Part shown: piece by piece, positions 14,750 to 15,863 of the stretch
How positions within the stretch are numbered: position 1 is the stretch's first letter
Layout of the letters: the number at the start of each line of letters is the position of its first letter
Source: Patescibacteria group bacterium
GTDB taxonomy: Bacteria > Patescibacteriota > Patescibacteriia > SG8-24
Reading direction: 5' to 3'
Assembly: GCA_034716415.1 (NCBI GenBank)
Contig: JAYEJB010000043.1
Location: 705-64,704, forward strand
DNA: 64,000 nt
Made by a program: the position numbers and the translations under genes
Notes under the pieces: generated by a model
The model's database searches: none
Seen by the model: the letters and a program-made list of their open reading frames with translations, nothing else
Told to the model about the DNA's origin: nothing

Positions 14750-14779
14750 TTGACAAGAAGGCAAAAAAAGCGGTAAATT
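14750..14779 (+). promoter_or_regulatory. sigma70-like promoter TTGACA-N18-TAAATT upstream of the small-protein cassette
   Basis: ttgaca agaaggcaaaaaaagcgg taaatt, followed ~85 nt later by the SD aaggaggag and an ATG. Confidence 0.4.
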
Positions 14780-14866
14780 AAGCTACCGGGAAGGCTTAAA
14801 GTCGTCCCAAAATCGTACTTTGAATTTGATTTCCGCAGGCGGTGTCCTGCAAGGAAGGAGAAGACG

Positions 14867-15085
14867 ATGTTGAAGGCTATTGTAGCCTGGATCTTCACTT
14901 GGATCTTTCAGAAGCTCATCATGAAGTACATCTGGGGCTTCGCTCTGAAGGTCATCAAGAAGATCGTCGACTGGATCTTCAAGCCCAAGCCGAAGAAGAA
15001 CGGACGAGGTATCGTCTGGCGGCTCATCGATCTCGTCGTGCGGCTCGCCAAGTGGATTCGGGACATCTTCAGGCGCCGGCGCTAG
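14867..15085 (+). CDS. small Trp-rich cationic amphipathic repeat protein (72 aa)
   Basis: Strong SD (aggaaggagaag, 6 nt before ATG). Four imperfect KxIVxWIF-like repeats and an RRRR C-terminus. Confidence 0.45.
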   Translation: MLKAIVAWIFTWIFQKLIMKYIWGFALKVIKKIVDWIFKPKPKKNGRGIVWRLIDLVVRLAKWIRDIFRRRR

Positions 15086-15111
15086 CGGCCCACCGAGGGA
15101 GGAGATAAGAG

Positions 15112-15366
15112 ATGGATTCTGTCATTCAATTCGTCGTTTCCCACTGGTGGGGCATTCTGATCGTCGCCGTTTCGCTCTTCTGGTCGGTGCCGACGATGTT
15201 CGTCGGCGGGAAACTGCACCTCAAGAAGTGGGGTGAGTATCGCATGGGGAAGCGCAAAGGCGGCTTCATCAAGCGATTCGCCGACTACGGCTTCGGGTGG
15301 ATCCTCGGTCTGATATGGCCGCTGACGATCGCACTCGTCATCCGCAAGTCGAAAAAAGACGCATAG
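15112..15366 (+). CDS. small membrane protein (84 aa, 2 TM)
   Basis: SD gagggaggag before the ATG. Two hydrophobic helices separated by a basic loop. Confidence 0.45.
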   Translation: MDSVIQFVVSHWWGILIVAVSLFWSVPTMFVGGKLHLKKWGEYRMGKRKGGFIKRFADYGFGWILGLIWPLTIALVIRKSKKDA

Positions 15367-15471
15367 GTATCGGCCAAAGACACAGGGCGCAACGCGCCCT
15401 CTTTTTTATCGAAGCTCGCCGAGAATCACCCGAAGCTTTACGCGAAGGGTGATAGCGACTGGAGAAGCGAG

Positions 15472-15759
15472 ATGGAGATATACACCAGGATCGCCGCGGG
15501 AATCGGCGGGTTACTGCTCGTTGGACTGATGTGTTACGGGATCATCAGGACAGCCACCAACTATGCCGTGTCCCATGACGATCCTCAAAAGTGGAAACGA
15601 TTCGCGGGATCATGGTCCGGCGCGTTTGCCATGGTGGGTTCGTTCCTACTGGTGGCGCTGGTTCCCGCGTTCGGCATCTTCATTGTGGCGGTACTGCCAC
15701 TCGTAGAGGATGCCATGGCGGCGTTCGCTAAGGATTCAGCTGGTGAAGTGTCGGAATAA
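15472..15759 (+). CDS. small membrane protein (95 aa, 2-3 TM)
   Basis: Hydrophobic helices. Same strand as lexA and immediately upstream of it. Confidence 0.4.
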   Translation: MEIYTRIAAGIGGLLLVGLMCYGIIRTATNYAVSHDDPQKWKRFAGSWSGAFAMVGSFLLVALVPAFGIFIVAVLPLVEDAMAAFAKDSAGEVSE

Positions 15760-15863
15760 AGAGTGTTTATGCGCTCTTTTTTGTTTATCCATAGGGGGTA
15801 CTTGCCGTTCGGTTTTTGTTCGGGTATACTTTGGATAGTGAAAGACGAGCTGTGGATAAACAT

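Follow-up and report, generated by a model that had tools for sequence, protein, structure and literature searches.

Three short open reading frames (ORFs) lie on the + strand directly upstream of lexA in the 64,000-nucleotide stretch of DNA analysed here, which comes from an uncultured Patescibacteria (CPR) bacterium (contig JAYEJB010000043.1; the whole stretch is called the window). An initial annotation had described them as one promoter-driven cassette, made up of a membrane-active peptide and two small membrane proteins, with SOS-coupled expression. The comparisons made here showed that the first two, ORF1 and ORF2, make up a predicted two-gene operon that is conserved in three species and has no recognizable LexA operator, and that the third, ORF3, is an unrelated orphan gene. 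Our best guess, which is unproven, is that the peptide encoded by ORF1 inserts into the membrane and that a partner with two transmembrane (TM) segments, encoded by ORF2, controls what it does there. We give a probability of roughly 0.4 to the whole of this explanation, namely three transcription units, a toxin/protector-like ORF1-ORF2 module, and no LexA control.

The ORF1-ORF2 module

ORF1 (14867..15085), ORF2 (15112..15366) and ORF3 (15472..15759) were found at the coordinates given in the initial annotation, and all three score as coding. A codon-usage log-odds model trained on 21 long ORFs of the window gave annotated-frame scores per codon of 0.54, 0.39 and 0.28, respectively, relative to a mean of 0.39 (sd 0.18) for in-frame 72-codon windows of long genes and a 95th percentile of 0.13 for out-of-frame windows; every alternative frame of each ORF scored below the annotated one. 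A GGAG-type Shine-Dalgarno (SD) sequence is present 5-8 nt 5′ of the ATG in each case. Because of the coding scores and the proper spacing of these SD sites, we take ORF1, ORF2 and ORF3 to be genuine genes, and NCBI gene calls exist for all of them as hypothetical proteins of a Patescibacteria metagenome-assembled genome (U9Q03_03555, _03560 and _03565).

The properties of the ORF1 product agree with the membrane-active character originally ascribed to it. It is a 72-aa polycationic Trp-rich peptide with a net charge of +16, six Trp residues (8.3%) and a C-terminal RRRR, preceded by the SD sequence GGAG at 14857..14860, the last two features being as first described. AlphaFold2 run on the single sequence (predicted local distance difference test score, pLDDT, 72) modelled a helix at residues 2-38, a KPKPKKNG hinge, and a second helix at residues 47-71. 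Both helices are amphipathic, and the hydrophobic moment reaches 0.81 in the C-terminal one. The claim that the peptide contains four imperfect repeats was borne out in part: the segments KAIVAWIF and KKIVDWIF are identical at 6 of 8 positions, a value reached in 42 of 5000 composition-preserving shuffles, and WIF occurs three times, which was seen in none of the 5000 shuffles, whereas the remaining two proposed repeats were less than 4/8 identical to any other 8-residue segment of ORF1.

ORF2 encodes an 84-aa cationic (+9) protein with its own SD sequence (GGAGGAG). As predicted in the initial annotation, ORF2 and ORF3 each encode two hydrophobic segments.

Protein databases gave almost nothing for these three proteins. 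When 5.8 billion clustered proteins were searched by a word index, each of the three matched only itself; the same was true of ORF1 in an exhaustive phmmer search of 1.84 billion representatives. It was also found that Pfam, PHROGs, NCBIfam and PADLOC contained no significant match for any of them. In PDB sequence searches, ORF1 matched only a designed repeat protein at E≤10, and neither the ORF2 profile nor ORF3 gave anything meaningful.

The surroundings of lexA were compared in 80 species-level lexA loci (designated L001 and so on; LexA 55-72% identical), in which the order priA - LigB-like | lexA was found to be retained in ten relatives, with a gap of about 110 to 1430 bp before lexA. The initial annotation had treated the three ORFs as a set whose conservation upstream of lexA could be checked. 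The ORF1+ORF2 part of this set recurs in 2 of the 11 nearest species, L001 and L002, and ORF3 has no counterpart. In both species the module has the same layout, consisting of a TTGAC(A/T) promoter, a leader of ~90-100 nt, a peptide gene, a 2-TM protein gene, and an AGGG...CCCT terminator; a near-consensus -35 element (TTGACA/TTGACT) is at the equivalent place, and the terminator 3′ of the 2-TM gene reads AGGGATG...CATCCCT.

The homologues of ORF2 were identified at 5600..5869 of L001 (BLASTP, 9e-6) and 4930..5220 of L002 (BLASTP, 5e-4). A hidden Markov model (HMM) built from the L001 and L002 proteins alone recovered ORF2 as its top non-self match among 8502 ORFs (E=0.0037). Comparison of the L001 and L002 genes gave a nonsynonymous difference (pN) of 0.28 and a saturated synonymous difference (pS) of 0.79, which indicates that the 2-TM partner is under purifying selection. 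Therefore, the earlier suggestion that ORF2 might be a partner component fits its behaviour as the conserved partner of ORF1. A metagenome scan with the ORF2 alignment gave no match, and one with the L001/L002 alignment led back only to the organism of L001 (locus L081).

The peptides at the position of ORF1 are 32 aa in L001 and 59 aa in L002, and both are polycationic and Trp-rich; the L001 peptide consists of a hydrophobic helix with a Trp and a terminal KRRKRQR. Alignment of the window and L001 peptides was significant relative to composition shuffles (z=4.06, p=0.0013), and that of the window and L002 peptides gave p=0.02. The three have in common the core [KR][IV][ILV]-[DE]-W-x-polybasic (KKIVDWIFKPKPKK, RRILEWLKRRKRQR and KVIYDWWRKRKRS). 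An unbiased composition screen of ~840 kb for stand-alone ORFs with an SD sequence and a Trp-rich, polycationic and hydrophobic product gave, besides ORF2, these positional peptides only. Apparent ORF1 matches in L056 and L068 were rejected as spurious, being located within sigma-factor genes.

The base composition of the L001 module (5461..5869, corresponding to 3862..4270 of L081) is unlike that of its flanks: the GC content at third codon positions (GC3) is 0.73 in a genome of 44% GC, as opposed to 0.31-0.42 for the L001 lexA, clpB and antiporter-like genes, which hints at a lateral origin. The antiporter-like gene replaces the LigB-like gene upstream in this species, and the module still abuts lexA. 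The window module is likewise enriched (GC3 of 0.85 and 0.79 vs 0.65-0.75), as is that of L002.

ORF3, a 95-aa 2-TM protein, would be a separate unit outside the conserved module. It has no relative among the 80 lexA loci and, as far as these comparisons go, is found in this genome only. Weak matches to type IV secretion system (T4SS) pilin models were rejected, since they scored far below the cut-offs (PF18895, E=0.049, 14.1 bits vs 26.6; TIGR03745, E=0.016, 15 bits vs 52.5). An unrelated 126-aa ORF takes the place of ORF3 in L002, and no significant relation to it was found.

Other small membrane genes were seen in the same slot. Directly 5′ of the lexA promoter, L003 (1949..2194), L006 (5536..5877), L020 (5610..5879) and L023 (5543..5875) contain a second 2-TM family, the members of which are weakly inter-related and have the motif WP...F[WL]D; ORF3 has no significant relation to this family either. 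L012 and L019 contain a DUF378-like small membrane gene there. A small membrane gene 5′ of lexA as a Patescibacteria-wide rule was considered and rejected, because it fails beyond the closest clade and is credible in <10 of 73 loci.

Transcription units and the LexA operator

The TTGACA-18-TAAATT promoter first noted at 14750 is present (14750..14779, + strand) as a sigma-70-like sequence that matches 10 of 12 consensus positions. It was the best match in the 2.5-kb stretch scanned, which contained 6 such sites vs 1.5 expected. It is followed by a leader of ~87 nt (14780..14866), which ends in a hairpin, GCAGG-cggtgt-CCTGC (14835..14850), abutting the SD sequence of ORF1. A hairpin of other sequence is also directly 5′ of the peptide SD in L001 and L002; we dropped these leader hairpins as evidence, with a fold z of only about -1.8.

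The single-cassette arrangement did not hold. An intrinsic terminator, AGGGCGC-AAC-GCGCCCT followed by a U-run, is present at 15384..15410 (-11.2 kcal/mol, z -3.9), after ORF2, and a terminator-like hairpin with a U-run at 15758..15789 (-10.2 kcal/mol, z -4.6), after ORF3. The lexA gene (15864..16487, + strand; Pfam LexA_DNA_bind PF01726, 5.9e-21, and Peptidase_S24 PF00717, 1.2e-32) has its own promoter, TTGCCG-17-TATACT, at 15802..15830. Because of the two terminators and the separate lexA promoter, ORF1-ORF2, ORF3 and lexA appear to be three transcription units on one strand. The first would be a bicistronic operon with the promoter at 14750, the leader, two SD sites and the terminator at 15384..15410; the second would be ORF3, an orphan gene that stands alone and ends in a weaker terminator of its own; and the third would be lexA.

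The suggestion of SOS-coupled expression required a definition of the LexA operator in this clade. The LexA box was found to be a GTTC-N7-GTTC direct repeat, CGTTCGGTTTTTGTTCGG(T/G), which in 60 of the 80 loci sits in the lexA promoter between the -35 and -10 elements. This form of direct repeat was previously known for alphaproteobacterial LexA (PMC8565304). Its identity as the LexA operator is supported by a high-scoring copy at 811..829 of L049, ~290 nt 5′ of a dinB-like Y-family polymerase gene that is followed by an SRAP-like gene. A position weight matrix (PWM) was built from the 60 lexA loci, with a maximum possible score of 33.3. The sole strong match in the window, with a score of 32.9, is the box CGTTCGGTTTTTGTTCGGG at 15806..15824, within the spacer of the lexA promoter; the next-best score was 10.0, and shuffled sequence gave a mean best score of 7.8 and a maximum of 18.2.

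The initial annotation had left the search of the ORF1 promoter until such a box was available. With the PWM, no site was found near this promoter (14690..14870, best score -7.3) or 5′ of ORF3 (15367..15475, best score -12.4), and the module promoters of L001 and L002 contained no LexA box above noise. In L001 the module promoter contains CTTTCGTTGATTCTTAGGT, which looks like a LexA box; it was rejected, as its score of 5.1 is at noise level. Because the clade LexA box is missing 5′ of ORF1 and ORF3, SOS coupling of ORF1-ORF3 through LexA is not supported by these scans, and ORF1-ORF2 would be expressed from a constitutive-looking sigma-70-type promoter without LexA control.

We also observed DnaA-box-like TTATCCACA motifs on both sides of the lexA promoter, at constant distances from the LexA box. 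The copies in the window are at 15785..15793 (+ strand, one mismatch) and 15851..15859 (- strand, exact), and the downstream copy occupies the place expected for an SD sequence. An exact TTATCCACA box was present in 56 of 76 lexA loci, at 3.11 per kb vs 0.04 per kb elsewhere, a 78-fold enrichment. The two flanking boxes are the only ones in the window that adjoin a promoter-like site; other one-mismatch matches are at 8952 and 39325.

A micro-ORF downstream of lexA

The 813-bp spacer between lexA and clpB contains a 24-aa micro-ORF, MARRRIRAAWRQFVGALSDVVMAR (16769..16843, + strand), preceded by a structured leader at 16643..16768. It recurs as an ORF of 23-28 aa on the same strand, 30-780 nt past the lexA stop codon, in 18 distinct species (the window 16769, L001 6781, L002 7058, L003 3131, L004 6699, L005 6643, L006 6763, L007 2695, L008 2434, L012 6792, L014 6782, L019 2081, L020 6792, L023 6755, L035 6744, L044 7402, L070 6700, and L075 4800). 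The consensus is M[AS][KR]RK[IL][RK]A.[YW]RQ[FY].G...D..., without an SD sequence. The mean pairwise nucleotide difference at codon positions 1, 2 and 3 was 0.49, 0.33 and 0.66, respectively, which is a coding pattern, and an HMM of the micro-ORF, run against 18,845 short ORFs from both strands, had no further matches. There was no match in Pfam, NCBIfam or Rfam. The exact sequences of five of these peptides (window, L001, L002, L007 and L012) were absent from a collection of 15 billion proteins, and therefore these five had never been called as genes.

In nine loci the micro-ORF is preceded by a conserved structured leader, consisting of a hairpin with a GTGGGAGA loop and a second helix. Five pairs of the hairpin are changed on both sides with pairing kept (covariation). 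In the window, no promoter-like or terminator-like site was found between lexA and the micro-ORF, and a strong terminator (-22.1 kcal/mol) is present 3′ of it, at about 17012..17048. Because no such site intervenes, co-transcription of the micro-ORF with lexA is probable, and the micro-ORF is therefore a better candidate for an SOS-coupled small protein than ORF1-ORF3.

The remainder of the spacer contains further structure. The interval from the lexA stop codon to the conserved leader contains a long imperfect hairpin of ~125 nt (16521..16646), and the 286-nt stretch that includes it folds at -138 kcal/mol (z=-11.3). The hairpin had no counterpart by blastn in the 81 fetched loci and no Rfam match; it may be an inserted inverted-repeat element. 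In the clpB-proximal part, at 17086..17250, a direct repeat, GAAGCAATTCCGTCGG, is present at 17087..17102 and 17235..17250, with a complementary stretch near 17120..17133 that suggests additional structure. Rfam gave no match in the whole window or in 14600..17400, and tRNA and tmRNA were also not found.

As for the wider neighbourhood, a LigB/Memo-like gene, priA, def and fmt are located 5′ of ORF1 in divergent orientation, and clpB is located 3′ of lexA in convergent orientation. No phage or mobile-element genes were found around the ORF1-ORF2-ORF3-lexA locus.

Possible functions and comparison with known systems

In the explanation that we prefer, ORF1 and ORF2 would be a small, narrowly distributed module of three Patescibacteria species, placed in a slot that varies within the clade and is bounded by the LigB-like gene and the lexA promoter. 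The peptide would evolve very fast and retain a hydrophobic helix that contains Trp and a few charged residues, together with an acidic-Trp interface motif and a polybasic stretch; ORF1 of the window may have been lengthened by an internal duplication and a second amphipathic helix. It would insert into the membrane of its own cell with the polybasic part at the cytoplasmic face, and the co-translated 2-TM partner would restrain or direct its membrane-perturbing or pore-forming tendency, according to a toxin/protector or effector/immunity logic. We favour this logic because the peptide diverges fast and its partner is conserved, and because the module is patchily distributed and foreign in composition.

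Several observations weigh against such a module. Neither protein has homology to a toxin, immunity protein or holin that has been characterised; tblastn gave no match for ORF1 in phages or plasmids and none for ORF2 in phages, and the L001/L002 2-TM profile had no match in IMG/VR. The homology of the peptides is weak, with p=0.07 for L001 vs L002, and the hydrophobic helix of ORF1, at ~1.5 on the Kyte-Doolittle scale in 19-residue windows, is borderline as a transmembrane segment. The module is known from three genomes only, and so a single inherited insertion could account for its place beside lexA. LexA control might also be exerted by a different, unrecognised operator or by read-through, and a harmless structural role suits the data almost equally well.

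This last idea, in which ORF1 and ORF2 are benign accessory subunits or regulators of a membrane machine or envelope function and ORF3 is a filler membrane protein, is possible, although we are inclined to doubt it. The housekeeping surroundings (fmt, def, priA, LigB-like, lexA and clpB) without mobile-element genes nearby, the host-typical codon usage of the window ORFs, the other, unrelated small 2-TM genes that related genomes hold in the slot, and a hydrophobic helix followed by a polybasic stretch, as in a simple positive-inside membrane anchor, are all consistent with it. It accounts poorly for a very patchy distribution, for the extreme charge (+16) and amphipathicity of ORF1, for a peptide that diverges very fast while its partner is conserved, and for the foreign GC3 of the L001 module. 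The same patchiness and foreign composition would suit a leaderless effector, bacteriocin-like or lytic, that is secreted to act on competitors or host cells, with ORF2 as a dedicated small cationic immunity protein. ORF1 is indeed cationic, Trp-rich, helical and leaderless, the L001 peptide has a melittin-like design, and ORF2 matches the published description of immunity proteins as 'small, cationic, hydrophobic' (PMC6131525). We regard this as unlikely, because no ABC transporter or other export genes were found nearby and the peptide, at 72 aa and +16, is larger and more highly charged than the leaderless bacteriocins listed (26-53 aa, +2 to +8); in addition, no solved bacteriocin matches by sequence, and two long helices rather than a saposin-like bundle are predicted.

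More improbable still is an SOS-coupled small membrane toxin or division-inhibitor cassette of the TisB/DinQ or YneA/SosA/SidA type, co-induced with lexA. Small membrane proteins beside lexA are the rule for Gram-positive SOS division inhibitors (PMC6851548), and the module adjoins lexA in three species, even with a different upstream neighbour. However, the LexA box was not found 5′ of ORF1 or ORF3 or of their L001 and L002 equivalents; the genes are co-directional with lexA and 5′ of its operator, with one or two terminators in between, whereas the known inhibitor genes are transcribed away from lexA and have its operator in common with it; and neither a LysM domain, nor homology to known inhibitors, nor an antisense promoter for a type I antitoxin RNA was found. 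That the three are chance ORFs with no protein product is hardly credible: the failure to find database homologues would agree with this, but all three have in-frame coding scores above the out-of-frame 95th percentile, SD sites are present, the ORF2 relatives are under purifying selection, and the operon layout is conserved.

A bolder form of the ORF1-ORF2 toxin/protector-like module would be a new, laterally mobile family confined to Patescibacteria, in which a polycationic pore-forming peptide and a 2-TM immunity or chaperone partner act as an addiction module or as an episymbiont weapon against host or competitor membranes. We consider this speculative and improbable; if true, the persistent docking beside lexA, together with the separately conserved lexA-downstream microprotein, would hint that in this superphylum the SOS regulator is surrounded by a layer of small proteins.

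The tiny genomes of Patescibacteria are packed with unannotated small membrane proteins, and for this reason any module whose logic can be tested is of use. The analysis also provides an explicit LexA operator for the clade, GTTC-N7-GTTC, and the negative SOS result takes ORF1-ORF3 out of the presumed SOS regulon. In their place it supplies a better SOS-linked candidate, the microprotein of 23-28 aa that follows lexA in 18 species, has a structured leader, and had never been annotated.

The initial annotation had likened ORF1 to TisB- or DinQ-type toxins, holins and bacteriocins. No membership in these families was found, as there was no homology to any of them or to Pfam, PHROG, NCBIfam, PADLOC or PDB entries, and the comparison is therefore one of properties. 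YneA, SosA, ChiZ, DivS and SidA (of Caulobacter) are, like the products of ORF1-ORF3, small membrane proteins encoded directly beside lexA. The known lexA-adjacent SOS division inhibitors are divergently transcribed, share the lexA operator, and have little or no sequence conservation between lineages (PMC6851548). ORF1-ORF3 differ from the YneA/SosA/ChiZ type in being co-directional with lexA, 5′ of the operator, without a LexA box, and followed by terminators; they also have neither LysM nor the layout of a single TM segment with an extracellular C terminus, and ORF2 and ORF3 have two hydrophobic segments. A phage holin or lysis cassette is not indicated, as there was no significant PHROG match, no phage genes nearby, and no phage tblastn match for ORF1 or ORF2.

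The leaderless class II bacteriocins of the aureocin A53/lacticin Q type are similar in arrangement, in that ORF1, like their peptides, is cationic, helical, rich in Trp and without a leader, and its gene is followed by one for a membrane protein (ORF2) that is small, cationic and hydrophobic. The leaderless bacteriocins listed are 26-53 aa with charges of +2 to +8 (PMC6131525). In its properties, which by themselves do not establish such a function, ORF2 (84 aa, +9, 2 TM) would suit a bacteriocin immunity protein. ORF1 is larger and far more basic, with no sequence or fold resemblance (saposin-like or LsbB-like); the neighbours are LigB-like, priA, def, fmt, lexA and clpB only, with no transporter or export genes among them.

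TisB is a short helical peptide with a charged strip on a hydrophobic helix, suggesting oligomeric pores or depolarisation. ORF1 resembles TisB and DinQ in this respect. These toxins are LexA-regulated, whereas ORF1 has no LexA box, is 72 aa long with a charge of +16, and has a protein partner gene instead of an RNA antitoxin. No TisB/DinQ/Hok-like type I toxin family was matched in Pfam or NCBIfam at E≤1, and neither a minus-strand promoter-like site in 14867..15400 nor an Rfam match was found, by a consensus scan that may miss a small RNA. Melittin and the cecropins are eukaryotic secreted peptides with precursors, and they have a hydrophobic or amphipathic helix, a Pro/Gly hinge, and a polybasic end. 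The likeness of ORF1 to them is not in sequence but in design, that is, in a helix-hinge-helix plan with a polybasic end.

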